A DNA stretch of 33,881 bases from a virus. Taxonomy: Duplodnaviria; Caudoviricetes. Location of the stretch: IMG/VR virus record IMGVR_UViG_3300011335_000500, positions 1 through 33,881 of that record; one strand, written 5' to 3'. Positions 3,313-32,146 of the stretch are shown here, piece after piece. The translations under genes were made by a program, and so were the position numbers. Under the pieces are notes generated by a model. The model saw nothing but the letters and a program-made list of their open reading frames with translations. It made no database searches and had not been told where the DNA came from. Every line of letters begins with the position of its first letter. Position 1 is the first letter of the stretch.

Positions 3313-3357
3313 ATTAAATTTGTATAAAATACCTATGCAATGTAAATCAAAAATACC

Positions 3358-5148: not shown

Positions 5149-5150
5149 AC

Positions 5151-7572: not shown

Positions 7573-7887
7573 ATGAGCCAAATTTACATTATGCGGAAGG
7601 CACTCTACATTGCTGAAACCATGCTTGTTGCTGGCAATGGCGCGTCCATGTATTTCAAGAGCATTTATATTTCAAGCACACACAATAATGCTTTGACGGT
7701 ATCGCTTGCGGTGACCGGTGGAGCATCGTTTTCAAGCGTTGGTGACTATTTAATCTACAACTATTCGCTTGCCGCAGGCGCGTACCTAAAGCTGGAAGAT
7801 ATTTCCATTCCAATCACGCATCAATTGCGGGGTTCCTGTAGTGTTGATTTGGTTGTAAGCGTGGTTGGTTCAGGTATTTTAGAGTGA
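7573..7887 (+). CDS. Small beta-sandwich virion protein (104 aa)
   Basis: ATG at 7573 preferred over the 7552 start; GTGA overlap with the next gene. Confidence 0.55.
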   Translation: MSQIYIMRKALYIAETMLVAGNGASMYFKSIYISSTHNNALTVSLAVTGGASFSSVGDYLIYNYSLAAGAYLKLEDISIPITHQLRGSCSVDLVVSVVGSGILE

Positions 7888-8861
7888 GTCAGCGACTTAA
7901 AGCTTGTTGTTGCGGCGACTGTATAAACGGCGCATTGGGTGCTTGTTGTTACAAGCGTGGCGGTGGCGGTGCTGGCGGTTCGACTTGCGAATGTTCAGAA
8001 AACTTAACGGAATGCGCTTGCAAGAACATTGGCGGTGTGTGGAACGGAAGCAACAATTGCGCTACGGGTTGCCTTGGTTCATGCTGTTTAGTTGAAAATA
8101 GTAGCGGTAGAATTTTAAGCTGTCAGGATAATGTTACGGAATGCGATTGCGCGTTAGTGACCAACGCAACACAAACGGGTTTTTGGATGGTTGGCGTAGG
8201 CTGCTACAACAATCCTTGCGGTATTCCATGCGGCCCTAAATTGTGCAATTTTCCGCAATCGGGATACATTCAAGATACTTACACCCGAACGTTAAATTAT
8301 AGAAGTAAAAATTCACCAACAGGAAACGGAGAGCCAAACAGTTACCAAATTTATACGGAAGATTTAAAATTTGTTAATTTTTATTATACCACAAACGTAG
8401 ATGCCACGTTTGCTTCAATCTATCGTCCACCCCCCAAAATAACTGTTTTTGATGATGGTTGGGTAACTTCGCGACAAGTTGAAACTTGGAATGTTTCAAT
8501 TTACAAAAAATCCGGCGATTGCGTTGAAATGGGTTGCATTCCAAATAGCAGTTCATATGATAATAAAACATACGATGGTTATAACGGAGTAACGGGTTGT
8601 TCAGAAGGTTCCACAGAAACAGTAACGTACACGGGAGAACAATTTTACGCATTAGTAAATCCATGTATAGAACTTACAACTAATCCCAGCCCGCCATGGT
8701 TTTGGCTTAACCGTTTTGGAAATCGAGCTTGTAGAATTTTGGGTGGTTGTGAAGTGCAATTAGTGGATTACTACATTAGAAGCAGGCTTGGTTATCCGGC
8801 TAATGGTTGCACAGCACCAAATAACACCATAACAAGAACAAGCTACGACACTTGCCCATGA
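7884..8861 (+). CDS. Cys-rich tail-associated protein with G(A/S)CC repeats (candidate receptor-binding protein)
   Basis: KACCCGDC, then two G(A/S)CC-x-C-x-TECxC-x-GxW-x-G-xxC repeats; AT-rich 3' half. Confidence 0.65.
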   Translation: MSQRLKACCCGDCINGALGACCYKRGGGGAGGSTCECSENLTECACKNIGGVWNGSNNCATGCLGSCCLVENSSGRILSCQDNVTECDCALVTNATQTGFWMVGVGCYNNPCGIPCGPKLCNFPQSGYIQDTYTRTLNYRSKNSPTGNGEPNSYQIYTEDLKFVNFYYTTNVDATFASIYRPPPKITVFDDGWVTSRQVETWNVSIYKKSGDCVEMGCIPNSSSYDNKTYDGYNGVTGCSEGSTETVTYTGEQFYALVNPCIELTTNPSPPWFWLNRFGNRACRILGGCEVQLVDYYIRSRLGYPANGCTAPNNTITRTSYDTCP

Positions 8862-9367
8862 TTCGCAACTTTTTCAAATACTTGTACGCTGAATTTTCAC
8901 ACGCTTTTAGGGGCGCGGCTTCCCAAAAAATTGCTAGTCAAAGATTGAAGGAATGTATGCGATGCGACCAGCGTAAGGTTGAATTGCTAGGGTCACTAGA
9001 CCCCGCTGGGGTTGGCTATTGTGGCGCGTGTGGGTGCTTGCCTTCGGCGCGTTCGCTATTGCAAGTCAAGGTAGGCATGGCAAAAGCAACTTGCCCGTTG
9101 AACAAATGGACGCAAACTAAGGGAACGGGAGCTACTGCAAGAACGATTTTGGAGGCGGTTTTAGGCTTTGTTACAACCGCAAAAACCTACGTTCCAAAAT
9201 TCCCAAAACGCGCCTTAACTCAAAGCAAAGTCAAAAAGGATGCAATAAAAAGGGTGAGCCAAATAAGGAAAGAACTAGGGTTGCCGCCCCTTGATTTAAA
9301 AAAAACAAAGGTAACCATAACGGTTGGTACGGCTTCTATGCAGCCCACACAAAATAAGATAGGATAA
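8858..9367 (+). CDS. Zn-finger protein (CxxC...CxxCGC...CPxxKW; DUF6171-like)
   Basis: RLKECMRC, YCGACGC, KATCPLNKW; ATGA overlap at 8858. Confidence 0.65.
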   Translation: MIRNFFKYLYAEFSHAFRGAASQKIASQRLKECMRCDQRKVELLGSLDPAGVGYCGACGCLPSARSLLQVKVGMAKATCPLNKWTQTKGTGATARTILEAVLGFVTTAKTYVPKFPKRALTQSKVKKDAIKRVSQIRKELGLPPLDLKKTKVTITVGTASMQPTQNKIG

Positions 9368-11160: not shown

Positions 11161-11424
11161 TTAATGTCGTCTAATCCAGCGGTTGTTGTTGACATACTCT
11201 AGCACAATTTTAAAAATGGTTGCGCCGTATCGGTCATACACAAGGGCAACTTCAAAGGCTTCCGCGCCTTCCTTACGGCGCAGCCTGCCACACAAATTCT
11301 TGATGCCTTCAATAGATTTAAAATCTGAAATGCGTACAATTTTGGTGTGGCTTAATCCATTTTTGACATACCGAACATGAGCAAACGGTGTCTTAATCAA
11401 TCCCTTGTTGGTTTCTGTGTTCAT
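11161..11424 (-). CDS. Hypothetical protein (87 aa, MNTETNK...)
   Basis: ATGA coupling to the lysozyme gene at 11421-11424; the longer start at 11679 is unlikely. Confidence 0.6.
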   Translation of the reverse strand: MNTETNKGLIKTPFAHVRYVKNGLSHTKIVRISDFKSIEGIKNLCGRLRRKEGAEAFEVALVYDRYGATIFKIVLEYVNNNRWIRRH

Positions 11425-11849
11425 GTATTTTTGCCTGTATCGGTTAAAACCCTTTGAACTTTTAGCCAATACTTCAGCGTTGCCGGCTTTAGATAACCAC
11501 GCGGCCCGCCGTTGTGAATTCGCGCCAACATTTCCAAAGTAACAGTTCCACGCTTGGGTGCATATCGGGCTAGGTACGCGCGCACCACAAATTCCGCATA
11601 CTTGGGATCCTTGCAATCCTGATAGCAACCACCGATTGAAGGAACGTATGCAATGCTGTCCCGCCAATAGGATTCCCAAATCTGAAAGGCTCCAAGGGCT
11701 TTTCCTTGATCGCCTATTGCGTTGGAATCACCGTTGCTTTCAACTTGCTTTATGGCAGCAAGCAATCGCACCATGTCAGATTCCGGCACTTGTGCAAACG
11801 CGCTGGTTGCCGCTGTTAGGGATAAAACTAAAGGTATTAAGTGTTTCAT
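11421..11849 (-). CDS. Secreted lysozyme-like / lytic transglycosylase (i-type/SLT-like fold)
   Basis: Signal peptide MKHLIPLVLSLTAATSAFA; AIKQVESNG (catalytic E), GAFQI..SYW, ARIHNGGP, YWLKV. Confidence 0.85.
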   Translation of the reverse strand: MKHLIPLVLSLTAATSAFAQVPESDMVRLLAAIKQVESNGDSNAIGDQGKALGAFQIWESYWRDSIAYVPSIGGCYQDCKDPKYAEFVVRAYLARYAPKRGTVTLEMLARIHNGGPRGYLKPATLKYWLKVQRVLTDTGKNT

Positions 11850-12187
11850 GCTGTCCTAAAAAGGTTGTGCGCGTGTTGCTTGCTTGACAGTTCATTTGAT
11901 GCCGCTTGAAAAGTGTGAAACAGTTCAAATTGCAAATCGCCCTGTACCCTTGAAATGACTGCTCCGCCCTCGCACTCACGCAACTTTGTGCGATCCTCAA
12001 AGCTCAACTTCACATAGGCATTTTCACAGGCTTTTGCGTTGGTGCAACCGTATCCCATCGGATGTAATCCGCAAGCGTCATCGGCTTCCACTAAAAGAAG
12101 CAAATCGCACACTTCATCGTTATTGTAAAACTCAAAGGTTTCCCAACCCGCTTCTAGCACGATTTCAAAATAGGCTTCTAGGTTCAT
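11846..12187 (-). CDS. Hypothetical acidic, Cys-containing protein
   Basis: 113 aa; ATGA coupling on both sides. Confidence 0.65.
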   Translation of the reverse strand: MNLEAYFEIVLEAGWETFEFYNNDEVCDLLLLVEADDACGLHPMGYGCTNAKACENAYVKLSFEDRTKLRECEGGAVISRVQGDLQFELFHTFQAASNELSSKQHAHNLFRTA

Positions 12188-12513
12188 TGTTGGCGATCCT
12201 CTAAGACTTTGCGCGCGCGCTGTAGGTCAGCAATTAAGTCGGACGAATCGGCTTCGCTAGCCGCCTCAAAAATTGAGCGTCCAACCTTGCGCTTGTGCGC
12301 CCCGCTGGGCGTAGCCATATTGTCCATGACCATAGCCCCACCAAATTCCAACGCCTCTATCGCTCCGCCAAATTCATACATAACAATATCGGCTCCAATG
12401 TCGCCGCCTTCGGCTAGCTCAAGCCTTGCAGCGCGTTCACGACCGCCTGTAACCAAATCGCCGGCTTTGCCATTGCAATTCTGTGAGTAAATAAATACGA
12501 TGAATTTTGCCAT
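12184..12513 (-). CDS. Hypothetical protein, first gene of the leftward operon
   Basis: 109 aa; AGGAAAGG RBS upstream. Confidence 0.7.
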   Translation of the reverse strand: MAKFIVFIYSQNCNGKAGDLVTGGRERAARLELAEGGDIGADIVMYEFGGAIEALEFGGAMVMDNMATPSGAHKRKVGRSIFEAASEADSSDLIADLQRARKVLEDRQQ

Positions 12514-14925: not shown

Positions 14926-15230
14926 TGTATTCAGTTGAGCTAGTTCAAGCAGCGATTCAACAATGTTTAGCCCGCCGTGGATTTAACTATCCACGGCACA
15001 ACGAAAGGGGCAAGGACAGCAACACCGCGCGAATGCTTGCCTTTGATGCGATGTTTGCTTTGACAGGCGGAAGCGTCACAGGCAGCGCGGTGAACGTGAA
15101 CGCATCCACAGCCAGCGGCAAGGCGTTGTTAGAGCGCACAACCACGGCGTACAGGAACAAGGACGAACGCAACATTTGGATCGCTGAAGTTCGGTCGCAA
15201 GTTCAACAAAATATTGAAACAGCAAAATGA
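14925..15230 (+). CDS. Hypothetical protein (possible small DNA-binding protein)
   Basis: 101 aa; TAATG and ATGA couplings. Confidence 0.6.
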   Translation: MYSVELVQAAIQQCLARRGFNYPRHNERGKDSNTARMLAFDAMFALTGGSVTGSAVNVNASTASGKALLERTTTAYRNKDERNIWIAEVRSQVQQNIETAK

Positions 15231-16342
15231 ATTACCTATCCGTGTGCAGCGGTATTGAAGCCGCAAGCGTTGCGTGGCATCCTTTAGGTTGGAAATGCGT
15301 TGGCGTTTCTGAAATAGAGCCTTTCCCTTGCGCCGTGTTGAATCATCACTATCCCACAGTTCCCAATTTTGGGGACATGACAAAATTTAAAGAATGGAAA
15401 ATAAATGGAACAGTTGACCTTTTGGCCGGAGGAACTCCCTGCCAATCTTTTAGCGTTGCAGGATTGCGGCAAGGCCTCAAAGACCCACGCGGAAACCTCA
15501 TGCTCACTTTTCTTGCAATCGCTGAACATTTCAAACCCAAATGGATCTTGTGGGAAAATGTCCCCGGTGTCTTGTCATCAAACAGCGGAAAAGATTTTGG
15601 TTGCTTCCTTGGAGGGTTGGGGGAATTGGGGTATGGGTTCGCCTACCGAGTTCTTGACGCTCAATGGTGCAGAACACACCGGCATCCAAGAGCCGTGCCG
15701 CAGCGTCGAAGGCGTGTGTTCGTTGTCGGATGTCTTGGAGATTTTACAAGTGCCGCAAAGGTTTTATTTGAGCGCGAAAGCCTGTCAAGGTATTCTGCGC
15801 CGCGCCGAGCGACGAGGGAAGGAACTGCCGACAATTTTGAGGAAGGCGTTGGAGGCGGTGGCAAAATAGTTGCCGATGTTGCAACAGTAGATGCAAGGAA
15901 TAATTTTGATCGTGGGGATAGTCAGCATTTAGACAGACTGATTCCGTGCTGGTGGGATGGCGACAACACGGCCAGCACTTTGACAAAATCAAATGCCAAT
16001 GGAGCGCAACGGATGCCTGACAAAGATAATTTTGGGGCGGTGTTGCAGCCTGTGGCAATGGCCGCGTTTACAAAGTCGAAGCGAGCGCAAAGCAAAACAG
16101 ATAACGAAACATGGGTTGAAGGTGTAGTTGCGCCAACAATGCAAGTGCGCCGCTTGACTCCAACCGAATGCGAACGCTTGCAAGGCTTTCCCGATGGTTG
16201 GACGGCGATACCGTGGAAGAAGAAGCCAGCGCAGGGCTGTCCCGATGGGCCGCGATACAAGGCTCTAGGCAACTCAATGGCGGTCAACTGCATGGAGTGG
16301 CTAGGCGAACGAATACAAGCGGTGGAGAGCGGGACGCTATGA
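15227..16342 (+). CDS. C5-cytosine DNA methyltransferase
   Basis: Motif I SVCSGIEA, IV GGTPCQSFS, VI WENVPG, VIII PQRRRRVF, IX RRLTPTECERLQGFPD, X YKALGNS. Confidence 0.95.
   Translation: MNYLSVCSGIEAASVAWHPLGWKCVGVSEIEPFPCAVLNHHYPTVPNFGDMTKFKEWKINGTVDLLAGGTPCQSFSVAGLRQGLKDPRGNLMLTFLAIAEHFKPKWILWENVPGVLSSNSGKDFGCFLGGLGELGYGFAYRVLDAQWCRTHRHPRAVPQRRRRVFVVGCLGDFTSAAKVLFERESLSRYSAPRRATREGTADNFEEGVGGGGKIVADVATVDARNNFDRGDSQHLDRLIPCWWDGDNTASTLTKSNANGAQRMPDKDNFGAVLQPVAMAAFTKSKRAQSKTDNETWVEGVVAPTMQVRRLTPTECERLQGFPDGWTAIPWKKKPAQGCPDGPRYKALGNSMAVNCMEWLGERIQAVESGTL
15405..15869 (+). CDS. Nested alternative-frame ORF, putative methyltransferase beta-type subunit
   Basis: 154-aa +1-frame ORF ending SLSDVLE..VPQRFYLSAKACQGILRRAERRGK; arrangement as in M.EcoHK31I alpha/beta. 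Confidence 0.65.
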   Translation: MEQLTFWPEELPANLLALQDCGKASKTHAETSCSLFLQSLNISNPNGSCGKMSPVSCHQTAEKILVASLEGWGNWGMGSPTEFLTLNGAEHTGIQEPCRSVEGVCSLSDVLEILQVPQRFYLSAKACQGILRRAERRGKELPTILRKALEAVAK

Positions 16343-19519: not shown

Positions 19520-20062
19520 ATGGCATTAGCAACAGCGGCAACAGGGCAAGCAGCCTACAACTTTAGCGGCCTTATTACTCTTACAAGCGGACAAGCTTAC
19601 GACGCGGCTTCACCAACGGCAACCAAGCCAAGCACGACTAGCCAAAGCGCGTTGCTGTATGACCTTGGCACAAACTACCCCAACCTAATCAAGATTGTTC
19701 CAAGCACCAGCGCAAACAATTTTACGTCCGTTGGTATGCGCGTCATTGGTTGGTCGCCTTATTCCGCAACCACGGGTAGCAATCCTTGGATTCCAACAGT
19801 TCTTGCAGATGTAACTTTGGGCTACACAAGCGGCACGGTTGCAAGCCTAAGCATTGACAACGTAACCAATTACTTCTTCAGTTCCGCAACCGTTGCAGCA
19901 AGCGTTCCAACCGTAAATATTTACACGCCGGCAACCGCAGCCGCTGCAAATGTTCAGCCCGCAAGCGTAATCATTGACTGCGTTGGCTCGCTGCTTATTC
20001 AAGTGCAATTCAAAGCCACCGGATCAAGCCCACAAATGGGCGCATTTTGGTACACAATCTAA
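19520..20062 (+). CDS. Virion structural protein (possible fibre/spike base)
   Basis: 180 aa, Ala/Thr/Ser-rich and beta-rich; AAGGA RBS; precedes the fibre-like gene. Confidence 0.55.
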   Translation: MALATAATGQAAYNFSGLITLTSGQAYDAASPTATKPSTTSQSALLYDLGTNYPNLIKIVPSTSANNFTSVGMRVIGWSPYSATTGSNPWIPTVLADVTLGYTSGTVASLSIDNVTNYFFSSATVAASVPTVNIYTPATAAAANVQPASVIIDCVGSLLIQVQFKATGSSPQMGAFWYTI

Positions 20063-20063
20063 A

Positions 20064-21260
20064 ATGCGAACGCGCCAAGTTACCGTTCCACGCCGGTATT
20101 CTCGCATGGGAATTGGTGGCGACGGCTCAACGCTGAATTTGAATTTTACAACTATGGGCGCGCTAGATTCGCGCTTTACATTCACGCGATCAACTACAGC
20201 CACTTACATTGATTCGTCGGGCTATGTCGCAACAATGGCGGCAGCCGCTACAAACGATCCAACCAAAGCGCGCTTTGATTACGACCCCACAACGCTAGCG
20301 GCTAAGGGTTTGTTAATTGAAGGCGCGGCTACGAATCTTTTAAACTTTAGCGAAACATTCGCAACCACCGGCGGCACTAATAATAATTGGGCCGACACGA
20401 ATCTAACCCGCACAAGCACAAATAACACTAGCCCGCGCAATGACGCTACAGCGTTGCAACTCACAGCCAGCGCGGCCAACGGAACGATTATTAGTTCAGC
20501 GGCTATGGGAACATCGGCGGCGCGCACTTTGTCCGTTTGGTTGCGACGCGTAACAGGCACAGGCAACATTCAATACACGCTTGACAATGGGTCGACATAC
20601 ACCACGCAAGCGATTACGGCGTCGTGGGTGCGCTACACATTCGCAGTCACTACCGCAGATCAACGCGTAGGTTTTAGAATTGTCACTAGCGCGGACGCTA
20701 TCGAAATTTGGGGAGTCCAGTTAGAGGCTGGCACTGGTGCTAGTTCATACATTCCCACAACCACGGCGCAAGTGGCGCGGGCTGAAGATGTTTGCAACAT
20801 CGGAACCATTACGGCGTTTAATTATTCCACCACTAACGGAACGCTTTTTTATTCGGGCGTGATAACAAAACAAAACGCTGGCGGATATCCAATTCGTCTA
20901 GGTTTTTATAAATTAAGCGGCGACGAAAAATGTTTTAATTTTCTAACAAATACAAATACTATTTATTTTAACGCAACGGGAAATGCATCCGCTGAAGTAT
21001 CGAAAAATTTTACGCTAAACACAGCATTCAAGGCCGCTATGTCTTTAGATGCTTCACTAGCCACGGCTGAAGTTATTGTGAATATCAACGGTACTACTGG
21101 CTCAACGGGTGCGACAGCGTTAACGGCAACCAACGCGCCAACGCAATTCAGTTTTGGGCAAACTGGCTACGGCGTAAATTTCCCATGCGGAACTATTGCG
21201 GCGGTGAAGTATTGGCCACTAACCAAGACAGCGGCAGAATTGGCGGTATTAACAGCATGA
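20064..21260 (+). CDS. Head-spike/fibre-like protein with carbohydrate-binding and LamG-like domains
   Basis: FTRSTTATY...RFDYDP...GLLIEGAATNL and QLEAG..ASSYIPTT motifs; ATG 20064. Confidence 0.7.
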   Translation: MRTRQVTVPRRYSRMGIGGDGSTLNLNFTTMGALDSRFTFTRSTTATYIDSSGYVATMAAAATNDPTKARFDYDPTTLAAKGLLIEGAATNLLNFSETFATTGGTNNNWADTNLTRTSTNNTSPRNDATALQLTASAANGTIISSAAMGTSAARTLSVWLRRVTGTGNIQYTLDNGSTYTTQAITASWVRYTFAVTTADQRVGFRIVTSADAIEIWGVQLEAGTGASSYIPTTTAQVARAEDVCNIGTITAFNYSTTNGTLFYSGVITKQNAGGYPIRLGFYKLSGDEKCFNFLTNTNTIYFNATGNASAEVSKNFTLNTAFKAAMSLDASLATAEVIVNINGTTGSTGATALTATNAPTQFSFGQTGYGVNFPCGTIAAVKYWPLTKTAAELAVLTA

Positions 21261-22604: not shown

Positions 22605-24015
22605 CGTTGCTGCGGTTGCCGCCGCCGCGCGTGAATGCCCTGACGTATTTGCCGAGTTGCTAGGCTTCCAGCAATCGCAATTGCACACAGATATGCAAGC
22701 GCACTTGAGCAAACACAGGGACGCGGCAATTGGTATGCCCCGTGGACACGGAAAATCCGTTCAAATAGGAATCCGTGAAGCGTGGGAAATTGGTCGCAAC
22801 CCAAGAATCCGCATTAAGCATATTGGGCAAACCGTAGTCAAAGCGCAAGAACAAGTACGCATGGTGGTTCAGATTATGCGCTCCGAAGTCTACAAGCTAG
22901 TGTTTCCTGAAATCCAAATAGTGAAGCCAAAGCCGGACGATGACGGCTCTAGCGAAATTGTTGTGCGTAGCGACACCATGCACAAGGATCCAACGCTACA
23001 GGCTGCAAATATCTTTGGTCGAGCCGGTGGACGCGCTGACCTATTGATTGGGGATGACGTTTGCGATTTACGCAATTCAATCCTGATCCCAGCGGAGCGC
23101 GCAAAGGTCAAGGAATCTTGGCGCAACAATTGGCTACCCATGCGCGACTTTTCGGCTGGAACACCGCGCACGTGGCGGCTGTTCACGCCTTATCACTCCG
23201 ATGATCTAACAGCCGATTGGAAGCGATCCGCCGAACTAGATGAAACCTTGTATTGGAAGCCCTGCAAGCACTACCAAAGCCCGTGGCCTGAAGTGTTCAC
23301 GCCAGCAATCCTAGAGGCGCAGCGTAAGGAAATGGGGCAAATGGGCTACGCGCGCGCCTACGAACTCGTTGCCATTGCTGACGATGCTTTGATATTCCGA
23401 CCCGAATGGATTGAACAAGGCTATTACATTGGCGACCCATCGCCTGAAGCGCAGTCAACAGGTCGGATTGTGGCTGCAATTGATTGGGCATTTACAGCCA
23501 AGAGCGGCGAAAAGGGCGACTTCAGCGTTTGCGTTATTGGCTTGCTTGACCGTGAAGGCAAAGTTTGGATCTTAGAAGCCATGCGGATGCAAGCAACGTT
23601 TCCCGAATTTATGCGCCGCGCCGTAGATTCATGTGAACGGCTAGACGTTTCCCTAATCATTGCAGAAGGCAACGGCCCTCAAATGGGGCTATGCCAGCAA
23701 CTTGCAAGCTCAACTAAGATACCGGTGCGGCAAATCAACCGCACTAAAGACAAGGTAACGCGCGCCAGCGAAGCGCAACCAATGGTTGAACAAGGTAGGT
23801 TGAAATTGCGATGCACCATGCAAGGCAGGGTTGAAATTACACAGGAAGTAATACGTGATGAAATGATCGGCTTTCCAGCGGCGGAGCATGACGACACAGT
23901 TGACGCGGTGGTTGACTTGCTCGATTATGCGCGCACAAGTCGATACGATCCTAGAAGCAGGCCTAGCACGGTGAAAAACGAATTGCCTAAATTGTGGAGA
24001 TTGTACGGACGATGA
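22591..24015 (+). CDS. terL: Terminase large subunit
   Basis: Walker A MPRGHGKS, Walker B LLIGDD, RNase H-like AIDWA...GDFS...HDDTVDA. Confidence 0.93.
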   Translation: MNSDSVAAVAAAARECPDVFAELLGFQQSQLHTDMQAHLSKHRDAAIGMPRGHGKSVQIGIREAWEIGRNPRIRIKHIGQTVVKAQEQVRMVVQIMRSEVYKLVFPEIQIVKPKPDDDGSSEIVVRSDTMHKDPTLQAANIFGRAGGRADLLIGDDVCDLRNSILIPAERAKVKESWRNNWLPMRDFSAGTPRTWRLFTPYHSDDLTADWKRSAELDETLYWKPCKHYQSPWPEVFTPAILEAQRKEMGQMGYARAYELVAIADDALIFRPEWIEQGYYIGDPSPEAQSTGRIVAAIDWAFTAKSGEKGDFSVCVIGLLDREGKVWILEAMRMQATFPEFMRRAVDSCERLDVSLIIAEGNGPQMGLCQQLASSTKIPVRQINRTKDKVTRASEAQPMVEQGRLKLRCTMQGRVEITQEVIRDEMIGFPAAEHDDTVDAVVDLLDYARTSRYDPRSRPSTVKNELPKLWRLYGR

Positions 24016-25868
24016 GCGAAAAAGAACAAGATCTAGCGGCGGAAACACAGCAAGGCGATGCAATCAAAACGCAGCCGGTGTACCAACAACTCGTTACGCC
24101 GGTTGAAATGCAGCGTTCGTTTTATACGAGCGTCAACAAAGTCTTGCGCCAAGGCTCACTTGCGTTCCGTAAGGATCGAACCTTGCAACGTCAAATGCGG
24201 TTTGATCCCGACATCATGGGGCCGTTACTAAGCTTGCAGCTGGGCGTTGCTTGCAGCGATTGGACAATTACGCCACAAGCGGACAAGATGAAAGATCCCG
24301 AAGCCATTCAAAAGGCTGCGATCATTGAAAAATTGGTACGCGGCATTCCACGCATCACAGATTTTATTCGTCATTTGCTAGATGCCCTGTGGTACGGTCG
24401 CAGCGCGGTGAACATTGTCTACGGACGCAGCGAGGACATGATCTATATCCGTGATTGGTTGCCTATCCACGGCGACAGCGTGGTTTCCACAGAACTAAAT
24501 CAGATCGGTTTGAAAGTTGGCCCGCGCTATTACACGCAATTTTCCGGCGGTGTTGATCCCGACACGGACAAAATCAACGGGACAATCATTGGTTGGGATT
24601 CACGCGTCTTGCCGCTTGATGAACGCCAACGAGCGACCATTGTGCTTCACACTTATCAGGCGCAGGGCGTTGATTTTGATGATCCGTATGAAGCCGAGAA
24701 TGCCTACCTAGGTCGCGGAATGCGTGACCTGTGTTGGTACTATTGGTCAATGAAGCAGGCCGCGCTTCAGAATTGGGCTACCTACATCGAACGCTACAGC
24801 ATGGGAATCCGAATTGGAACCTACCCAATTGGTAACGATCAAGCCAAAACTGAAATGGAAACGGTCATGCAAAATATGCTTGGCGATGTTTCCGCATTGA
24901 TGCCGCGCGACCCCAACGCCACAGGCGACCAACCATTTGACATCAAGATTTTGGAACCCAACGCCGGCAACGCTGAAACCTTTGCCCGCATGGTTGAATA
25001 CCTAGTCGGCAATATCAAGGAAGTAATTCTTGGACAAACGGGAACAAGCGAAGCCATTTCAACCGGAATGGGATCTAGCGTAGCCGATGAACACGCCAAA
25101 ACCCTAAACCGCCAAATGCAATATGTGGCAAACGGCCTAGCGGAAACAATGAACCGTGAAGTGATACAGCCCCTTTACCTGCATAACTTCGGGCATGAGG
25201 GAACTATTCCACAATTCACCTTTAGCATTTCCAAGCCAAATCCTGAAGAATATATGAAGGCTGTTGAATCCTTCACCAAATTGGGCGGGCGCATATCGGA
25301 GCGTGAAGCCCGCAAGGTGTTTGGATTGGCGGAGCCGGAAGATGATGAACCCGTATTGCAAGCACCCGCTGAAGGCGGAATGGCTCCGCTTGATGTTCGC
25401 CCAATGGGCAAAGAACCCGAACCGCTGCCGGACATGGACGAGCAAGAACCGCCTAGCAATGAACCGCCAACTAAGATCAAAGCCCGCAAGCGCGGCAAGA
25501 AGGCATTTACACGCTCAAAAAAAAAGTTTAGCGCAGGCGCGGAAACGAAATGGTTTGCCGGCGAAACGGAATTAGGCAAAGGATCAGGCTCTCGCAAAAT
25601 AGTTTCCGGCGCAGAATTTAAAGCAATGTTTCCAACAGAAACTTCCGCTTTTAGTTTCGACACGCAGCGAATGGCTGCAATAAATCCACAGCGACAATAT
25701 TGGGTTGGGTTTGTCAATGGTGTTGCAAAGCCAATTACGCGCGCGGTGCTGTGGGCCGCAAAGCCAAACAAGCCGTTGCACAAGTGCAATTCCAAATGCA
25801 AAACCGCCAACGGCGGGGAATGCAATTGTGAATGCCTAGGCAAAAATCACGGGATACTAAGGGTTTGA
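24012..25868 (+). CDS. Portal protein (DUF935/Mu gp29-like) with an extra C-terminal Zn-binding domain
   Basis: LLDALWYGRS, YLGRG, WATYIERY, ILGQT; ATGA overlap at 24012; C-terminal HKC..KC...CNCECLGKNHG. Confidence 0.88.
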   Translation: MSEKEQDLAAETQQGDAIKTQPVYQQLVTPVEMQRSFYTSVNKVLRQGSLAFRKDRTLQRQMRFDPDIMGPLLSLQLGVACSDWTITPQADKMKDPEAIQKAAIIEKLVRGIPRITDFIRHLLDALWYGRSAVNIVYGRSEDMIYIRDWLPIHGDSVVSTELNQIGLKVGPRYYTQFSGGVDPDTDKINGTIIGWDSRVLPLDERQRATIVLHTYQAQGVDFDDPYEAENAYLGRGMRDLCWYYWSMKQAALQNWATYIERYSMGIRIGTYPIGNDQAKTEMETVMQNMLGDVSALMPRDPNATGDQPFDIKILEPNAGNAETFARMVEYLVGNIKEVILGQTGTSEAISTGMGSSVADEHAKTLNRQMQYVANGLAETMNREVIQPLYLHNFGHEGTIPQFTFSISKPNPEEYMKAVESFTKLGGRISEREARKVFGLAEPEDDEPVLQAPAEGGMAPLDVRPMGKEPEPLPDMDEQEPPSNEPPTKIKARKRGKKAFTRSKKKFSAGAETKWFAGETELGKGSGSRKIVSGAEFKAMFPTETSAFSFDTQRMAAINPQRQYWVGFVNGVAKPITRAVLWAAKPNKPLHKCNSKCKTANGGECNCECLGKNHGILRV

Positions 25869-26920
25869 AAGACTTTGATGCAGTCTATAAGCGCGGTCTA
25901 ATCATCGTTGACCGCCTTTACCGGCAAGCCATTGCCGATCAAATCAAAGGCGACAAAGCAGCCGCCAAAAAATCTTGGGGAAAATATCAATCTGCCCTGT
26001 CACAGATCCTTACCTTGACCGTTCTACATGGTGAGGCGGTTGCATACGCGGCAGCGCAGCGGGCTGGTTTAAAAATCAAGCCTGATCCAAAACTCAAAAA
26101 AAAGCCCGAAACCTTTGCTGAACGCAAAGCAACGGTTGGCTTTGAAGCCGGTGACTTTTGGGAAGCCATTTGGGGATTCAAGAAAAAAATACCTTTAGCG
26201 TCCAAGGCAGTCCAAAAGGCGCAACGTGAAATGGATCAATTGGCCGCCAAGATTGCCAAGGCGGAAAGCGTCAACGCCTTAAACGACCTTTCAGCGCGCC
26301 TAGAAGCACTACGCAAGACTTTAAAAGGCTCTTTCCGCGTCAAGGGGGCTTCGGCGGCGCAGGCTAGGAAACTCAAGGCTTTGATTGCGGATGCCATTAT
26401 TCATAAGAAACTGCCCGAAGGCTTGCGAACCGGCGGAATGAGCCAATTCATTTCCCGCGCGCAAGTGGAGGGGATCGTTGGCTTGACTAGCGCGCGCATG
26501 GAAACGGTCTACCGCACCAATGTGGCAAGCGCATACAACGATGCAACCGTAGACGCTATGGACAAACCAGCTGTTCAATCATGGGCTCCATTGCTTCGCC
26601 TAGTCGAAATTCACGATTCCCGCACTCGTGGCGCGCCAAACGGTGTTTACAAGCAAAAGGGAAAGAGCGCAAACGAGGGCTTCCATTGGCAAATGGACGG
26701 CTACATTGAAACGGCGCAGCGATTTAAGGAACAAAACCTTGTTCCGCCCAACGGTTACAACTGCCGTGGCTCGCTTGAACCATTTACGCATGACGATGCC
26801 GGCGAATTAGGCTTGCTGGATAAGGATGAGAATATAGACCAAGCGAAACTAAATCGCTATAACAGCAAGAGGCAGCAAGTGATTGATCGCGGGCTATACC
26901 CCGATGCAGGATTCAAATGA
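25832..26920 (+). CDS. MuF / SPP1 gp7-like minor head protein
   Basis: RMETVYRTNVASAY, DSRTR, HWQMDG, PPNGYNCRG. Confidence 0.85.
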   Translation: MPRQKSRDTKGLKDFDAVYKRGLIIVDRLYRQAIADQIKGDKAAAKKSWGKYQSALSQILTLTVLHGEAVAYAAAQRAGLKIKPDPKLKKKPETFAERKATVGFEAGDFWEAIWGFKKKIPLASKAVQKAQREMDQLAAKIAKAESVNALNDLSARLEALRKTLKGSFRVKGASAAQARKLKALIADAIIHKKLPEGLRTGGMSQFISRAQVEGIVGLTSARMETVYRTNVASAYNDATVDAMDKPAVQSWAPLLRLVEIHDSRTRGAPNGVYKQKGKSANEGFHWQMDGYIETAQRFKEQNLVPPNGYNCRGSLEPFTHDDAGELGLLDKDENIDQAKLNRYNSKRQQVIDRGLYPDAGFK

Positions 26921-27078
26921 CAGAAATGACCCTTCAGCAAATCAATAAGGCAATCCGAGAAGCCAAGAAAGAGCGCGCTGCAATCATTGCGGCGCAGGCT
27001 GCATACCTGAAGGCCGCTGAAGATACGCGCAAGGCAGTTGACCTAGCAATGGAAAAGGCACGAAAGGCAAACCAATGA
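26917..27078 (+). CDS. 53-aa helical peptide (MTEMTLQQINKAIRE...)
   Basis: ATGA overlaps at both ends; not in the ORF track. Confidence 0.7.
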   Translation: MTEMTLQQINKAIREAKKERAAIIAAQAAYLKAAEDTRKAVDLAMEKARKANQ

Positions 27079-28094
27079 AGATTGAAGATAAAGCGTATTT
27101 TGCAGTTTCACCGGCTGAAACAGAAAAGAAAATTCGTGATCTAACAGCGGCGTGGCGTAAGTTAATGAATGTCGCCGACAACTTGCACGGCATGGCTAAC
27201 CCATCGCCGGAAATTATGAAACGCCAAGATCAAGTGGATGCTGACATGGAACGCATCGGCAACCAAATAGCGGAGTTAAAAAAATCAATTGGCGTTCAAG
27301 AAAATGTTTCTGTAAGACTTGCCAAGCCCGTCGAGGACAAAGCGTATTTTGACCGCCGAATTGAAGTCGAAACATGGAAAAGCCCAAAGGGAACAACCTA
27401 CATTGCCGGACTGCATCAATTAAGCGGCGGTTCATTCCAACCGTTTGTTACCGCTACTTATGCCGACGGCGAACAACAATTGATGACTAGAAATATGTTG
27501 AGATTTAAAACGGAAGATGGCGCAAGAAAATGGTTGAGCGCAGAAATTACAAGGCGCAAAACACCAAATGCCCGCCAAGGCATCAAGGCTAGGTTTGATA
27601 AAGAATGGACTGAAGCCGGATTTAGTGCTTCGTTCTTTATTAAAAAATTGCAAGGCATGATGGCCGTGTATCAAGGCGAAAACGATAACGAATACAGAAA
27701 CAAGATTATTGGCTATGCAAAAACATTGGCTAATCATCCCGACTTTGTATTGAATGGCGTGAGTTCTCAAGCGTTGGCTAAAAAGGCTTTTGCACTTGTT
27801 AAATTTAAATATGCCCGCACAGGAACCAAATCCAAGTTTGCCAACCGTGGCGCGTTCGCCGAAGCGTCATCGTCGCCGGTACTTGGAAGCCTGCTAGAGA
27901 AAAAAGTAATGCCTGAAGGTGGTTGGCGCGCGGTGGAAACTGATGGCGCGGCGTTAGTAATCGCCTTCGAGGACGGCGACATTGCGGGCAACTTTGCTAG
28001 GAGAGCATCGGAAAATGGTTATAGTGCGACTGCGCCAATGGCTATGGCGGGACGATTTTGGAATGTAAAGGTACAAAATGAAAACAAAAACTAA
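27075..28094 (+). CDS. Head-module multi-domain protein 1 (four ~82-aa modules; putative cargo polyprotein)
   Basis: Modules delimited by EDKAYF|A, EDKAYF|D, ARQGIKARF|D and ARTGTKSKF|A. Confidence 0.8.
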   Translation: MKIEDKAYFAVSPAETEKKIRDLTAAWRKLMNVADNLHGMANPSPEIMKRQDQVDADMERIGNQIAELKKSIGVQENVSVRLAKPVEDKAYFDRRIEVETWKSPKGTTYIAGLHQLSGGSFQPFVTATYADGEQQLMTRNMLRFKTEDGARKWLSAEITRRKTPNARQGIKARFDKEWTEAGFSASFFIKKLQGMMAVYQGENDNEYRNKIIGYAKTLANHPDFVLNGVSSQALAKKAFALVKFKYARTGTKSKFANRGAFAEASSSPVLGSLLEKKVMPEGGWRAVETDGAALVIAFEDGDIAGNFARRASENGYSATAPMAMAGRFWNVKVQNENKN

Positions 28095-29394
28095 TTTTGC
28101 AACAACATCGGATGTCAGAAATTTGATTAACGCAACTATGGAAACCTTTCCAAAGGGGCCGGAGCGTGACGGCATCCAAACAAAGATGTTTAATTTTTGG
28201 GATAATTTCAACGCTGGAAACAACTTGCCCGCAGGATCTGACCGTAAACGGTTTCTTGCCGAAGCCTTTGACAACATAAACGCAGCACTTCGCACAGCAC
28301 AGCGGCTAGACAATGAAGGCAACAAAGGCTGCGTTATGAAAGTAACCGTGTTGGAATCAAAGTTGACAGGAATTAAAGTAGGCAAAAACGAAATGGCAAA
28401 GGTTGAAGATAATTTTTACGGCAAGCGCGTTGTGAAGGGAATCTTTGCGAAGGCGAAGTTTGCAAAAGAATACATATTGTGGGCTGTTCCAAAAGGCAAA
28501 ACGGACACAATGTATTCACAGCCCATAGCGGAACACCTGTACACGGATGCACAAATAAACGATGTAAAACGCAGAGCAACCGCTGCGGGTTGGCATACCT
28601 TTAGAATTGCTGAGATGATGAGTTTCGAGGATATGACAAACGCTTTTAAGGGCAAGCCTGTTAAAAGACGAAGTTCTCGCACCGGCTCGAAGGCGAAGTT
28701 TGCAAAAATGAGCCCTGAAAAAGTAAAAATGTTGACTGAAGCGGTTCAACAAGTTGTAAAAGAAAAACCATTGATTACTAGGAAATACTACGCAGATCAC
28801 GGATTGTCAGAAGTGCGATGGTTTTGGGATATATATTGGGCAGCACAAAAAAAACTGCCGCCAAATTTTGTAAGCGATCATTATAAAGATGGGTTACATG
28901 ACAGTCATATTCAAACAATTTTAAAGTCTGCATTAAAATCATACTCATCCCGCACCGGCGCAAAGGCGAAGTTTGCCAACGAGGAAATTGCCAAAGGGCT
29001 TTCCAAAGTCTTGAAAGCAAACGGCTTTGACGCAATGGCATCGGAAGTTCTTAGCGGTTCAACAGATTCCGAAACGCTTCGCAAATATATCCGCGCGTTG
29101 AAAAGCAAACTTTCACCTATGGGCGGAAATGATAGGGGAATGTTCTTGTTGCAAACACTTGAAAAGCAACTTGCTTCCCGCACCGGCGCAAAGGCGAAGT
29201 TTGCAATAAAGAAAATTAAAGATTTAGGTAACGGTTGGGTTGTTGAAGAAGCAACCGGCAACGATGCTTTTAACCCTAGTGCTACAGAATTGTATTTAAC
29301 AAAAGGAAGCAAAACAATTCCTGTTGAATCTCTTAAACACGCAATTGAAACCTACAACGATCTTATAACGGGTAAAAAAGGGATTTATAAATAA
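28078..29394 (+). CDS. Head-module multi-domain protein 2 (about five modules; putative cargo polyprotein)
   Basis: Modules delimited by KTKTNF|A, AKAKF|A, SRTGSKAKF|A and SRTGAKAKF|A twice. Confidence 0.8.
   Translation: MKTKTNFATTSDVRNLINATMETFPKGPERDGIQTKMFNFWDNFNAGNNLPAGSDRKRFLAEAFDNINAALRTAQRLDNEGNKGCVMKVTVLESKLTGIKVGKNEMAKVEDNFYGKRVVKGIFAKAKFAKEYILWAVPKGKTDTMYSQPIAEHLYTDAQINDVKRRATAAGWHTFRIAEMMSFEDMTNAFKGKPVKRRSSRTGSKAKFAKMSPEKVKMLTEAVQQVVKEKPLITRKYYADHGLSEVRWFWDIYWAAQKKLPPNFVSDHYKDGLHDSHIQTILKSALKSYSSRTGAKAKFANEEIAKGLSKVLKANGFDAMASEVLSGSTDSETLRKYIRALKSKLSPMGGNDRGMFLLQTLEKQLASRTGAKAKFAIKKIKDLGNGWVVEEATGNDAFNPSATELYLTKGSKTIPVESLKHAIETYNDLITGKKGIYK
28448..29204 (+). repeat. Dispersed in-frame linker repeats
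   Basis: TCCCGCACCGGCGCAAAGGCGAAGTTTGC identical at 28948-28976 and 29176-29204; variant at 28675-28704; CGAAGGCGAAGTTTGCAAAA shared by 28448 and 28688. Confidence 0.92.
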
Positions 29395-30644
29395 TGGCCG
29401 CATCCCACCAAACCGAAACTACGCCGGACGGCAAGGTTCGCATTAAAGACTTGGAATTGTTCATGGGTTACGATCCCTCGATTGATGCGGCGGATGATGA
29501 TGCCATGCAGGAATACGATTCCGAGAAGGTAAAGGACATTGTTAGCCGCACCAATAAGTTTATTGCGCGCGGAAGCCGTCCCAAACTTGTGATTGAACAT
29601 GAAAAAGATGGCAAGCCCAGCAACCCAAAGGCGGTTGGCGACATTGAAAAGGTGTGGCTTGAAGAACGCAACGGCGTTTCCTACGTCATTGGCGATGTCA
29701 TTATGCCCCAAAAATCATACGATGCGTACTTAGCAACCAATGCTTTCCCGCGTCGATCCGCTGAAATTTGGAAAGACAATCATTTGAGCGAAGTGGCATT
29801 GCTGGGTCGCGATACCCCGCGCCGGCCATTGCCGGACACTTCATTTACGAAACTTGGCGATAAGATTATTTTTGAAAGAAAATTGTCCACGTTGGACATG
29901 ACTATTGACTTGAAAAGCAAATTTGACGAAATTGGCGTAGGTGGTGGTTCAAACACCTTCGTCCCATCGTCAGGAATTACAAAGGAAACAAAAATGGCTA
30001 AGAAGAAGCGAATGGATGCTGAAGAAGAATTGAAGCAAAACGCCGCTATGGAATGCGCTGTTGACCCCGACGAGGATGAGGAAAATTTTGAGGGCGATGA
30101 CCTTGAAACTATGGAATCCGATGCCGAAGCAATGGGCGCGGATGACATGGAAGATGAAATGGCCGAGGATGAGGATTTGGAAGTTATGGCCGAGGATGAG
30201 GACGAAGATGACAACGCCTACGGCGGAAAGAAGAAAATGAAGCAACCCGTATTTAGCAAGGGCAGCCGATCCGAGAAGGCTTTATTTGCTCAAGTTCAGG
30301 CTTTGACCGAAGCAAACAAGGCTATGGAGCGTCAATTGCGCCTTGAGCGATTTGGCAAGGAAATTGACAACATGGTGCGCGACGGTTTCCGTTGCTCCAA
30401 ATTCCGCAATCAAATGGTTGAGGAGTTGGCGGACAGCGAAGCCCCGCAAGCAAAGGTTTCCTTTTGGAAAGCGACAATGGCGCGCGATCTGACAGGTATG
30501 CCGATGTTGGCTCAAATGACTGTGCAAAACGATAGCCCAAATATGGGTGACCGTGAAGCAAGCGACCGCGCTGTTCGTGAAGCAGCCGGCGACATGATGA
30601 AATTCAAACAACTGTTCAGCAAGTACACAGGCAAACAAGCCTAA
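29394..30644 (+). CDS. Prohead protease-scaffold fusion (Mu gpI-like)
   Basis: PKLVIEH, AVG.I, RRSAEI, VALLG..P motifs; highly acidic and coiled-coil C-terminal half. Confidence 0.8.
   Translation: MAASHQTETTPDGKVRIKDLELFMGYDPSIDAADDDAMQEYDSEKVKDIVSRTNKFIARGSRPKLVIEHEKDGKPSNPKAVGDIEKVWLEERNGVSYVIGDVIMPQKSYDAYLATNAFPRRSAEIWKDNHLSEVALLGRDTPRRPLPDTSFTKLGDKIIFERKLSTLDMTIDLKSKFDEIGVGGGSNTFVPSSGITKETKMAKKKRMDAEEELKQNAAMECAVDPDEDEENFEGDDLETMESDAEAMGADDMEDEMAEDEDLEVMAEDEDEDDNAYGGKKKMKQPVFSKGSRSEKALFAQVQALTEANKAMERQLRLERFGKEIDNMVRDGFRCSKFRNQMVEELADSEAPQAKVSFWKATMARDLTGMPMLAQMTVQNDSPNMGDREASDRAVREAAGDMMKFKQLFSKYTGKQA
29994..30644 (+). CDS. Scaffold protein from an internal in-frame start (Mu gpZ-like)
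   Basis: AAGGAAACAAAAATG at codon 201 of the protease ORF. Confidence 0.6.
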   Translation: MAKKKRMDAEEELKQNAAMECAVDPDEDEENFEGDDLETMESDAEAMGADDMEDEMAEDEDLEVMAEDEDEDDNAYGGKKKMKQPVFSKGSRSEKALFAQVQALTEANKAMERQLRLERFGKEIDNMVRDGFRCSKFRNQMVEELADSEAPQAKVSFWKATMARDLTGMPMLAQMTVQNDSPNMGDREASDRAVREAAGDMMKFKQLFSKYTGKQA

Positions 30645-31091: not shown

Positions 31092-31117
31092 AACAAACTT
31101 ACAAAGGAGTATGAAAA

Positions 31118-32146
31118 ATGGCTGAAGTAGGAGTTGGTGGTGGCCCGAATACATTCGTTCCCACCTTTAGTCCGGCAACCGGACAATTGCAGATCGAGTT
31201 TACACGTTCCGTAAATCAGTTTCCAATTACGCGTTATGCCCAAATTGTTCCTGTGACCGCCATGAAGGGTTACTACCTCAAAATTGATGAGGAAGAAACT
31301 GCCCGCTTGGTTACTGTTCAAGATGCCCAATGGCCGCTTGGCGAAGATCGACCAACAGGAATCAACAGCGATTTTGAATTTGTTGCATACACAACGCAAC
31401 GCTTCCAAAACTCGTTCAGCATTCCAGCGGAAACCGCGCGCCAATCAGCTTGGGATATTGTTGCGAGCCATGCTCGTATTCAAGCCGCCAAGATGATGAC
31501 GCACCGCGCTTCCCGCGCTGCAACAACTTTGACGACTTCCGGCAATTACCCATCCAACGCTTATGTTGCTAGTGCAACAGCGGCTATTGGTGCAGCAATT
31601 ACAACGACCGATGGCGTACAAAAGTTGATCCGCTACGCAATTGAACAAATTGTTCAAAACACAGTTGGCGTTGTAACTCCAAAGGACATTATCATGGTAA
31701 TGAATCCATCAGCCGCGCGCATTATTGCGTCAACTGACGGCGTTCGTGACTATGTGAAGAACACCCCAATGGCTTTCAGCGCGTTGACAGGCGATGCAAC
31801 ATTCGCAACCTACGGCTTGCCGCAAACCTTGTTTGGTTTGGGTGGCGTTGTTGTTGATGACACAGTCAAGGTAACAACCCGCAAGGGCGCGTTGACACCT
31901 TCCCGTGGATTCTTCTACGGTACAGCGGCAGCCCCATCGGTTGTATTTGTGAGCCGTCCCGGCGGTTTGGTTGGAAACGAAGGCCCTTCGTTCTCAAGTT
32001 TGACTGTGTTTGCCTATGAGGACATGACAGTTGAAACCTTGGAAGATCCTTGGAATCGACGCATCAAGGGTTCAGTTGTTGACAATTCAGCAATTGAATT
32101 GACTGCGCCACTTTCAGCATTCTACTGTTTAGACATTCTTACCTAA
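31118..32146 (+). CDS. Major capsid protein (HK97 fold)
   Basis: 342 aa; strong AAGGAG RBS; canonical position; IIMVMNP segment; followed by a terminator. Confidence 0.85.
   Translation: MAEVGVGGGPNTFVPTFSPATGQLQIEFTRSVNQFPITRYAQIVPVTAMKGYYLKIDEEETARLVTVQDAQWPLGEDRPTGINSDFEFVAYTTQRFQNSFSIPAETARQSAWDIVASHARIQAAKMMTHRASRAATTLTTSGNYPSNAYVASATAAIGAAITTTDGVQKLIRYAIEQIVQNTVGVVTPKDIIMVMNPSAARIIASTDGVRDYVKNTPMAFSALTGDATFATYGLPQTLFGLGGVVVDDTVKVTTRKGALTPSRGFFYGTAAAPSVVFVSRPGGLVGNEGPSFSSLTVFAYEDMTVETLEDPWNRRIKGSVVDNSAIELTAPLSAFYCLDILT

Follow-up and report, generated by a model that had tools for sequence, protein, structure and literature searches.

The window, a stretch of 33,881 nucleotides (nt; IMG/VR record IMGVR_UViG_3300011335_000500), is a single phage contig whose head operon lies on the + strand and contains two neighboring open reading frames (ORFs), at 27075 and 28078, that encode polyproteins. 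The operon runs from the terminase (22591) through a Mu-type portal, MuF, a 53-amino-acid (aa) ORF, polyproteins 1 and 2, ORF 29394, a small head gene and the putative major capsid protein to an adaptor and the neck. Together the two polyproteins hold nine modules of 63 to 113 aa, each standing behind a site of the form [K/P]xx[F/M] followed by a small residue. An earlier note on this DNA, made from the letters alone, had proposed that these arrays of dissimilar mini-domains are loaded into the prohead, cut after Phe by the neighboring prohead protease and injected with the DNA. Comparison with other viral loci indicates that the two genes and their relatives are a real, widespread cassette system, in which the linker DNA is the point at which modules are swapped between related phages. 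The features are collected in Table 1, where a slash within a site marks the predicted cut.

Both reading frames are real and carry the sites and spacings that the earlier note had listed. The Phe codons of the sites lie at 27099, 27348, 27594 and 27837 in ORF 27075, spaced 83, 82 and 81 aa apart, and at 28096, 28459, 28699, 28972 and 29200 in ORF 28078, spaced 121, 80, 91 and 76 aa apart; the short leaders that open the two proteins (9 aa and 7 aa) both end in Phe at such a site. The two ORFs are coupled by overlapping ends to each other and to ORF 29394. The pattern K[AST][KRYN]F[AD] occurs four times in ORF 27075 and five times in ORF 28078. When each protein was shuffled 100,000 times, three matches were never reached, a figure that is optimistic because the pattern had been derived from these very sites. 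Elsewhere in the window, over 9,490 aa, there are only two matches, at the protease's own junction and in tail protein 20064. As an independent check, 10,079 window positions were scored with a matrix for which 232 linkers from other clades were the sole training set; the last four sites of ORF 28078 took ranks 1 to 4 and two sites of ORF 27075 ranks 7 and 8, with KTKTNF/A in 25th place and the two EDKAYF sites outside the top 30. The linkers are also repeats at the DNA level (family D1, five copies of 42 nt).

Table 1. Features of the head operon in the window (pI, isoelectric point)
Feature	Positions	Strand	Remarks
Mu-type portal	24012..25868	+	PF06074, E 1e-49; C-terminal tail
MuF minor head protein	25832..26920	+	PF04233 just below cut-off; phrog_220
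53-aa ORF between MuF and polyprotein 1	26917..27078	+	found in the window's clade only
Polyprotein 1, 339 aa	27075..28094	+	leader of 9 aa with EDKAYF at its end; modules: three variable, one constant
Module 1, 77 aa, pI 8.3	27102..27332	+	window's own clade only
Linker EDKAYF/D	27333..27350	+	predicted cut after Phe, codon 27348; L001 and L003 homology stops here
Module 2, 73 aa, pI 9.9	27351..27569	+	relatives in four clades, 39-81% identity
Linker ARQGIKARF/D	27570..27596	+	
Module 3, 72 aa	27597..27812	+	other position in L001; shared DNA block 27594-27818 is exactly this module
Linker ARTGTKSKF/A	27813..27839	+	loose contig ends at 27814, 27818
Module 4, 84 aa, acidic, pI 5.3	27840..28091	+	sole constant module, in 42/42 loci
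Polyprotein 2, 438 aa	28078..29394	+	7-aa leader KTKTNF, five modules; stop codon overlaps protease start
Module 5, 113 aa	28099..28437	+	window clade only
Linker GIFAKAKF/A	28438..28461	+	
Module 6 (KEYILW...GWHTFR), 71 aa	28462..28674	+	also behind Glu-type sites in unrelated phages, and as stand-alone 65-aa gene
Linker SRTGSKAKF/A	28675..28701	+	
Module 7 (KMSPEK...), 82 aa	28702..28947	+	matches phrog_9817; without relative in the loci
Linker SRTGAKAKF/A	28948..28974	+	
Module 8, 67 aa	28975..29175	+	relatives in two distant clades
Linker SRTGAKAKF/A, second copy	29176..29202	+	
Module 9, 63 aa	29203..29391	+	relatives in one distant clade
Prohead protease domain, assemblin/T4 gp21 fold (modeled)	29394..29924	+	His69 codon 29598, Ser122 codon 29757; ends KSKF/D (Phe177, codon 29922)
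Junction site and copy of putative major capsid protein N-terminus	29919..29965	+	DEIGVGGGSNTFVP vs AEVGVGGGPNTFVP; family D5
Scaffold part of protease gene	29994..30644	+	in-frame ATG, Shine-Dalgarno-like AAAGGA upstream; sites KKRM/D, KALF/A, KATM/A, KQLF/S
Putative major capsid protein	31118..32146	+	inferred from position and size

Relatives, module families and the linker repeat

A search with the protease domain gave 51 viral loci, and the set analyzed here comprises the window and the 41 loci that hold both MuF and the protease; L046, which has broken frames, and loci without MuF or protease were left out. These 42 loci yielded 268 segments with a median length of 75 aa, which fall into 73 families (clustered by single linkage, with a mixed family 2 and two segments that arose as ORF-calling artifacts) and 37 arrangements. 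Relatives thus carry different module sets joined by the same kind of linker, as the earlier note had anticipated. It had named an invariant full-length architecture and unconserved linkers as signs against its reading, and neither was seen: the architecture varies and the linkers are conserved. Linkers of the EDKAYF and SRTGAKAKF types occur in close relatives, and SRPGQPERF, SRPGEKDMM and EDRFYF in a neighboring clade. Further loci came from three clades in which the protease is ~50% identical (35, 80 of 136 and 80 of 122 loci) and from one clade at ~66% identity (4 loci). With all loci pooled, 606 segments form 218 families, 51 of them found in at least two clades, and eight of the nine window modules have relatives. 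Ratios of nonsynonymous to synonymous substitution rates over the 52 families with usable pairs have a median of 0.17, with 49 below 0.5 and none above 1, values that indicate purifying selection on the modules. The pI exceeds 8 in 86% of the 73 families.

Among loci that run from terminase to protease, a linker ORF is present in 28 of 29 in clade 1, 19 of 23 in clade A3, 14 of 16 in clade A4 and two of three in the window's clade, where the locus counted as lacking it, L003, has variant linkers. In the sister clade A2, none of the 24 complete loci has a linker polyprotein. The usual place of the A3 polyprotein, which can be as long as 1297 aa, is between the terminase and portal genes. Clade 1 polyproteins have an EDK/R-x-YF leader and a constant acidic last module, and in A3 and A4 the last module is often one of 50 aa that resembles phrog_2423. 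Module 4 of the window is a candidate prohead anchor. The region varies in other ways too: in L041 an unrelated 382-aa gene replaces polyprotein 2, and a 100-aa phrog_2859-like module moves among the portal tail, the protease N-terminus and the polyproteins (L139, L164, L171-L250). A conserved 180-aa gene accompanied by a tail-like gene lies upstream of the terminase in the window (19520-21260), and the same pair stands between MuF and the protease in many relatives (L117, L125, L152, L171-L250).

Homology between arrays breaks off at the linkers. Internal ends of homology, 802 in number and not independent of one another, fall within 9 nt of a linker in 77% of cases, against 17% for random positions, and a DNA block common with L002 and L004 (28458-28704) covers exactly one module. 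Codon identity between linker copies in one genome is 0.83 to 0.88, against 0.36 to 0.46 expected, and the same 12-nt linker start recurs across clades. In public contigs of other runs, three of the five joints listed have their two ends at linkers or only a few bases away from one (linker-located joints lead from 28703 to 29176, from 28705 to 28963 and from 28693 to the gene end). Among the loose contig ends listed, half (7 of 14) lie in a linker or no more than 5 nt from one; these contigs come from four runs, one possibly the window's own, and joints with short sides are weak. A scan with a 25-nt linker pattern gave 108 stretches, from which 102 new loci were examined, 74 with wide flanks and 28 with 300-bp flanks only. 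All 74 wide-flank loci lie inside the head operon and on its strand, 36 of them with a protease in reach, and the linker reading frame is kept in 161 of 166 pattern matches. We consider it very probable that modules are exchanged by homologous recombination between the 27-nt repeats. No integrase was found among the window genes scanned, in a contig that may be incomplete and in which many genes have no match.

The adjacent protease and the motif in other head proteins

The gene next to the polyproteins, which the earlier note had taken for a prohead protease, sits between the portal and capsid genes with the scaffold in frame. His69 and Ser122, the predicted catalytic His and Ser, are the only invariant columns in an alignment of 139 protease sequences. 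The protease model has a predicted local distance difference test score (pLDDT) of 94, and its best match among 48,161 solved chains is T4 gp21 (Z 8.8, root mean square deviation 3.1, 119 aligned), followed by the proteases of varicella-zoster virus (Z 7.4) and human cytomegalovirus (Z 5.9), with unrelated rows at 4.9 or less. The Atlas look-alike of ORF 29394 is Mu-like_Pro (0.93), a family present on 17% of that cluster. By its modeled structure, ORF 29394 has a prohead-protease fold of the assemblin/T4 gp21 type and appears to be Mu gpI-like, in agreement with the earlier identification. Searches of Pfam, PHROG and NCBIfam gave no match for it (PF10123 or a similar curated profile), and a previous model built from 16 sequences had a pLDDT of 58 and led to uninformative Foldseek and PDB-sequence searches.

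The Phe at the junction between protease domain and scaffold is invariant in 16 close sequences and at least 90% conserved in 53 diverse ones, and the residues that are rare at P1 of linkers, H and N, are likewise seen at the junction of some proteases. The capsid-like copy that follows the junction (29919-29965, against 31115-31161) has the form GVGGGxNTFVP and recurs, with variations, throughout the protease family; possibly it is an arm that binds the capsid and is exposed by the cut. Two distant proteases, P0142 and P0150, have long extensions directly after the Phe junction, and cargo may also be fused to the protease there. An embedded scaffold gene has been described in the Mu-like phage KS10 (PMC2628397). 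In clade A3 scaffolds the long motif is native and its codons are free, and in L117 (7992-9446) a cargo module is inserted in the scaffold part of the protease gene at a native linker-like site, both of which suggest that the linker originated from a scaffold site. The scaffold's own site was probably copied to give the linker, an origin by which a captured gene would stay in frame, be released with a clean N-terminus and be exchangeable again.

The short motif [KP]xx[FM][ADGSE] is not spread evenly over the head proteins. Its observed/expected ratio is high at the protease junction (5.4), in the scaffold (4.1), in portal tails (2.9) and in the MuF N-terminus (2.0), and shows no enrichment in the capsid protein (1.08), terminase (1.14), portal core (1.18) and protease domain (0.55). 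This distribution is the pattern that substrates of the head protease would leave. In scaffolds, Ala is enriched 3.5-fold after Phe, Lys and Pro 3.3- to 3.5-fold at P4 of Phe, and Lys 3.1-fold at P4 of Met. P1 of 303 DNA-anchored linkers is F in 169 and M in 89 (258 together), and the Phe codons are TTC in 92 and TTT in 77; since both are used, the residue is kept and not the codon. P4 is K in 228 and P in 64, and P1' is A in 133, G in 51 and D in 44. The residue preceding the linker is F in 105 of 259 cases, a 14-fold enrichment that we read as a second site in tandem.

In the window, the portal tail consists of a basic linker (KKKF/S, TKWF/A) and a Cys-rich module (25557-25865) that corresponds to the first module of the L160 polyprotein (39% over 99 aa), and the N-terminal part of MuF ends in PETF/A (Phe95, codon 26114), a site kept in relatives. 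The use of linker DNA as a swap point, the motif on scaffold, junction, portal tail and MuF, and the longer polyproteins of related clades go beyond the earlier note. Portal tails of relatives, compared with positions 25500-25868 of the window, reach ~450 aa behind KDRF/A and KDRF/D, and L017 has none. The L041 portal (2700-5432) has 910 aa, and its last domain, which by eye we take to resemble an ADP-ribosyltransferase, gave no match in Pfam. In L177, L184, L220, L226, L248 and L250, MuF has 636-638 aa against ~360 elsewhere; the additional part, which begins with a Cys behind CN, may be an intein.

Modules elsewhere and other genes of the window

A profile search with module 6 gave 46 rows, of which 42 were examined after four already-known family loci had been set aside. 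The module occurs in F/M-linker polyproteins in 27 of these loci, behind xTE/A in ten, behind MAE/DH in two, in one other context, and as a stand-alone gene in two. The stand-alone form is a 65-aa gene with its own ribosome-binding site, in two identical rows (L382/L383). The earlier note had suggested that the KEYILW and KMSPEK modules read like captured free-standing small phage genes; this holds for the former, through the 65-aa gene, and was not confirmed for the latter (module 7), whose only match is phrog_9817 at E 2e-9. In the window module 6 begins KAKF/AKEYILW, and in unrelated phages LTE/AKEYILW. The ten xTE/A rows have five different leaders, such as MKNFKQHLTE/AKEYILW and MKTFNQFITE/AKEYILW; these MKxFxQ leaders we take to resemble the T4 targeting sequence, a likeness not confirmed in the papers searched. 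Three further module families are shared with these Glu-type loci. T4 gp21 cuts after L/I-x-E, which was first seen at a Glu-Ala bond (PMC9026906). With the same module start after Phe here and after Glu there, both cuts would free the same N-terminus. L384 (532-10833) and L398 have an open frame of 3,400 aa, a very large polyprotein with Glu-type repeated joints in which module 6 is combined with an ATPase-like domain.

A module absent from the window is a stand-alone gene of 94-100 aa in cultured phages (31 records matched, two opened), where the stand-alone copies sit among small hypothetical genes, and other modules span nearly whole profiles (phrog_7884, DUF7678). Word-index protein searches with modules 6 and 7 gave no stand-alone homologue, the Atlas gave for module 6 only leads below 0.9, and tblastn against cultured phages gave no match for either ORF, module 7 or the L201 polyprotein. 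A viral match of module 7 was rejected as a 10-residue chance match. Family libraries returned nothing informative for the window modules beyond phrog_9817 and a weak DUF1391. More widely, PADLOC gave one marginal match among 18 proteins, NCBIfam none among 21, and Pfam, run on 75 and 60 proteins, one match above cut-off besides Portal_Mu (DUF7678).

Outside the polyproteins, the putative major capsid protein had no passing library match and no tblastn match in cultured phages, and a scan for promoters and terminators gave a signal at chance level. A look-up of RNA data sets that contain the sequence gave none. The window also encodes a RusA-like resolvase and a Gp157 gene, as well as ORF 13307, which we take to resemble a strand-annealing recombinase and for which Pfam, PHROG, NCBIfam and PDB gave nothing. 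A small minus-strand block (11161-12513) includes a destabilase/transglycosylase-like lysin (PF05497). Two Cys-rich ORFs lie in the tail region at 7884-9367, one matching phrog_13558 and the other without a match, and a C5 cytosine methyltransferase (PF00145) at 15227-16342 overlaps a 154-aa frame at 15405-15869. Nitrospiraceae was considered as the host and not accepted, as the sole genome match is a 6.5-kb contig whose every gene read is a phage head gene.

Proposed mechanism, alternatives and known systems

We propose that captured genes between linker copies form a cassette array in the head operon, that the polyproteins would be co-assembled into the prohead, that the adjacent head protease would cut after the Phe or Met of each linker, and that the released pieces would stay in the capsid and then be injected with the DNA into the next host cell, to act early as counter-defense or host-takeover proteins. 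We favor this full chain, from swapped cassettes to injection, with moderate confidence, and each computational check that was run (varied module sets, stand-alone modules, protease fold) came out in support of the earlier reading. Its steps differ in strength. Cleavage by the phage's own protease, by a rule close to [K/P/R]-x-x-[F/M, rarely H/N] / [A/G/D/S/E], is a prediction from the motif that we hold with good confidence, and packaging of the modules in the capsid would be likely. That they are injected as effectors seems somewhat more probable than that they are not. Action against host defense specifically is a tentative suggestion, drawn from the analogy to T4 IPI, the size and charge of the modules and their diversity. 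The EDK/R-x-YF leader or the constant last module is a possible loading signal, on which we would not yet rely. Also tentatively, we suggest a new kind of diversity generator: a 27-nt coding repeat derived from the scaffold that is at once a recombination site and a cut site, and that would capture small genes from a pool held in common with unrelated phages, refit them to the resident protease (Phe/Met or Glu) and inject a reshuffled counter-defense arsenal with up to a dozen or more modules per gene.

Several results weigh against this proposal. The loci are kin, so their counts are not independent, and no loading signal common to all clades was seen. Foldseek with the protease gave a best E of 0.015 and nothing at E ≤ 0.001, the same families appearing weakly among MCE domains, and only the top VIA score of the protease model exceeds 8. 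Asn takes the place of the junction Phe in L052-L055, as His does in some A4 proteases, with F or M still present in most of their linkers, and no co-variation of protease junction and linker was seen within the family. The matrix ranked tail protein 20064 (KARF/D) 6th and the resolvase 18645 9th, both proteins that are not expected to be cut. The flanks of the Glu-type module 6 loci contain no T4 head gene or protease that could be seen, so that the T4-type rule is assumed there. No module matched a characterized effector in PADLOC, NCBIfam or characterized Pfam families.

The pieces could also be cut in the prohead and then serve the head itself, as core filler, in condensing DNA or as an aid to ejection, or simply be discarded. 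The motif is common to the disposable scaffold, the modules are basic, T4 IPIII affects the rate of head assembly (PMC9026906), and the propeptides of phage SPN3US undergo repeated cuts and for the most part do not remain in the head (PMC10052503), from which it follows that pieces released here need not be retained. We nevertheless regard a head role as unlikely, because 218 unrelated families under apparent purifying selection, with stand-alone copies, exceed what a filler needs, and such diversity fits conflict with the host. An uncut chain of beads on a string, whose linker is a flexible or capsid-binding spacer and a recombination repeat, would account for the first four linker codons being fixed in the DNA, since recombination alone explains this; it also agrees with the frequency of the short motif inside modules (ratio 1.33, which unsplit linkers may inflate), where avoidance of cutting would have led one to expect a depletion, and with polyvalent proteins, some of which are packaged or transferred uncut (PMC5512222). 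That P1 is kept as a residue while its codons are free, that Glu fills the same register in other phages, and that the motif marks scaffold and junction in clades without a polyprotein all argue for cutting, which makes the uncut chain distinctly improbable.

Release might instead come from a host protease, a cytoplasmic phage protease or internal translation starts at Met-type linkers. Staphylococci are known to have host proteases that cleave the head proteins of phages at Phe-Ala, and at 89 of the 303 linkers the last codon is ATG, with AAGG a short distance upstream of it. Yet all nine window sites end in Phe, where no translation start is possible, neither TTG nor GTG occurs at P1, K-x-x-M sites are enriched in the scaffold too, and the genes sit in the head operon; we give this explanation little credence. 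With only four residues, the motif is one that Lys-rich proteins often contain, and the arrays could in principle be a product of chance or neutral junk from repeat-driven duplication, but the non-random motif, the reading frame kept in 161 of 166 matches, the exact swap points and the signs of purifying selection already contradict this, and we consider it highly improbable.

If the proposal of cut, packaged and injected modules holds, it supplies a rule for recognizing tiny phage proteins carried in virions, namely that they are flanked by a head-protease site, and it offers a cleavage rule for a Mu-type protease family for which we found none in print. The question of what phages inject and how that kit evolves would become testable with one protease, one substrate and ~200 small families, and screens for injected effectors could start at once from the 218 module families as a library. 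The occurrence of module 6 in stand-alone, Glu-jointed and Phe-jointed forms, with the same N-terminus in both jointed forms, suggests that unrelated phages converged on one delivery format. Our literature search, in which subscription journals were thinly covered, found no description of polyproteins of the phage head whose parts are joined by a recurring linker with a protease site; the polyprotein of PMC7689252 is a DNA-polymerase polyprotein and unrelated. Integron cassette arrays likewise hold unrelated accessory cassettes with a repeat between them at which exchange occurs. Unlike theirs, the repeat here is coding and in frame, and fuses the cassettes into one protein.

Two other phage systems offer partial parallels. 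MuF polymorphic toxins (PMC5576092) also tie variable cargo to the portal-MuF region, with loading into the head proposed. There a single C-terminal toxin is carried on MuF, whereas here the cargo lies in separate genes and on the portal, and the window MuF, at 362 aa as in relatives, has no C-terminal extension or toxin fusion; neither "cleav" nor "recombination" appears in the main text of that paper. Processing by SPN3US gp245 (PMC10052503) resembles our proposal in that one short motif extends across portal, protease and inner head proteins, with repeated cuts per precursor. It differs in that 13 of 14 mapped sites lie in N-terminal propeptides that are removed, and the available text of that report describes no retained, exchangeable module array.

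The closest likenesses are to the T4 internal proteins and to polyvalent proteins. T4 IPI is an injected, basic restriction inhibitor of ~8 kDa (PMC9026906), and IPI, IPII, IPIII and Alt carry a capsid targeting sequence and are processed by gp21 (PMC9026906, PMC10229621). Like these, the modules are small, basic and variable among relatives, IPI being about one module in size, and they appear to be non-essential, judging from their absence in sister clade A2. Both systems have a short leader ending in a head-protease site, the same protease fold and a scaffold cut by the same rule, the cutting being predicted here. Packaging, shown for T4, is inferred here. T4 has one cargo per gene, against four and five modules per gene in the window and polyproteins of up to 1297 aa in relatives, and its targeting sequence of 10-19 aa ends in a gp21 Glu site, against leaders of 9 and 7 aa that end in Phe. 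The head here is Mu-type, the site is Phe/Met, and the DNA of the site is a swap point. Polyvalent proteins, which occur in phages and conjugative elements (PMC5512222), share with our system 2-15 unrelated domains per chain, mosaicism and linkage to MuF and portal; they are predicted to be packaged and released by proteolysis, and the paper itself draws the polyprotein analogy. Their domains are recognizable enzymes (MPTase, ArdC-N, LPD, ART, PBECR and others), in contrast to ~75-aa modules in which known domains were not recognized, and release there is ascribed mostly to embedded metallopeptidases (a peptidase is present in ~36% of members), whereas no peptidase domain was matched in either window polyprotein ORF. 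Every joint here is a repeated site, and the word "linker" is absent from the main text of PMC5512222. The system in the window would work in the manner of the T4 internal proteins and has the build of a polyvalent protein, and it is a member of neither class as defined.

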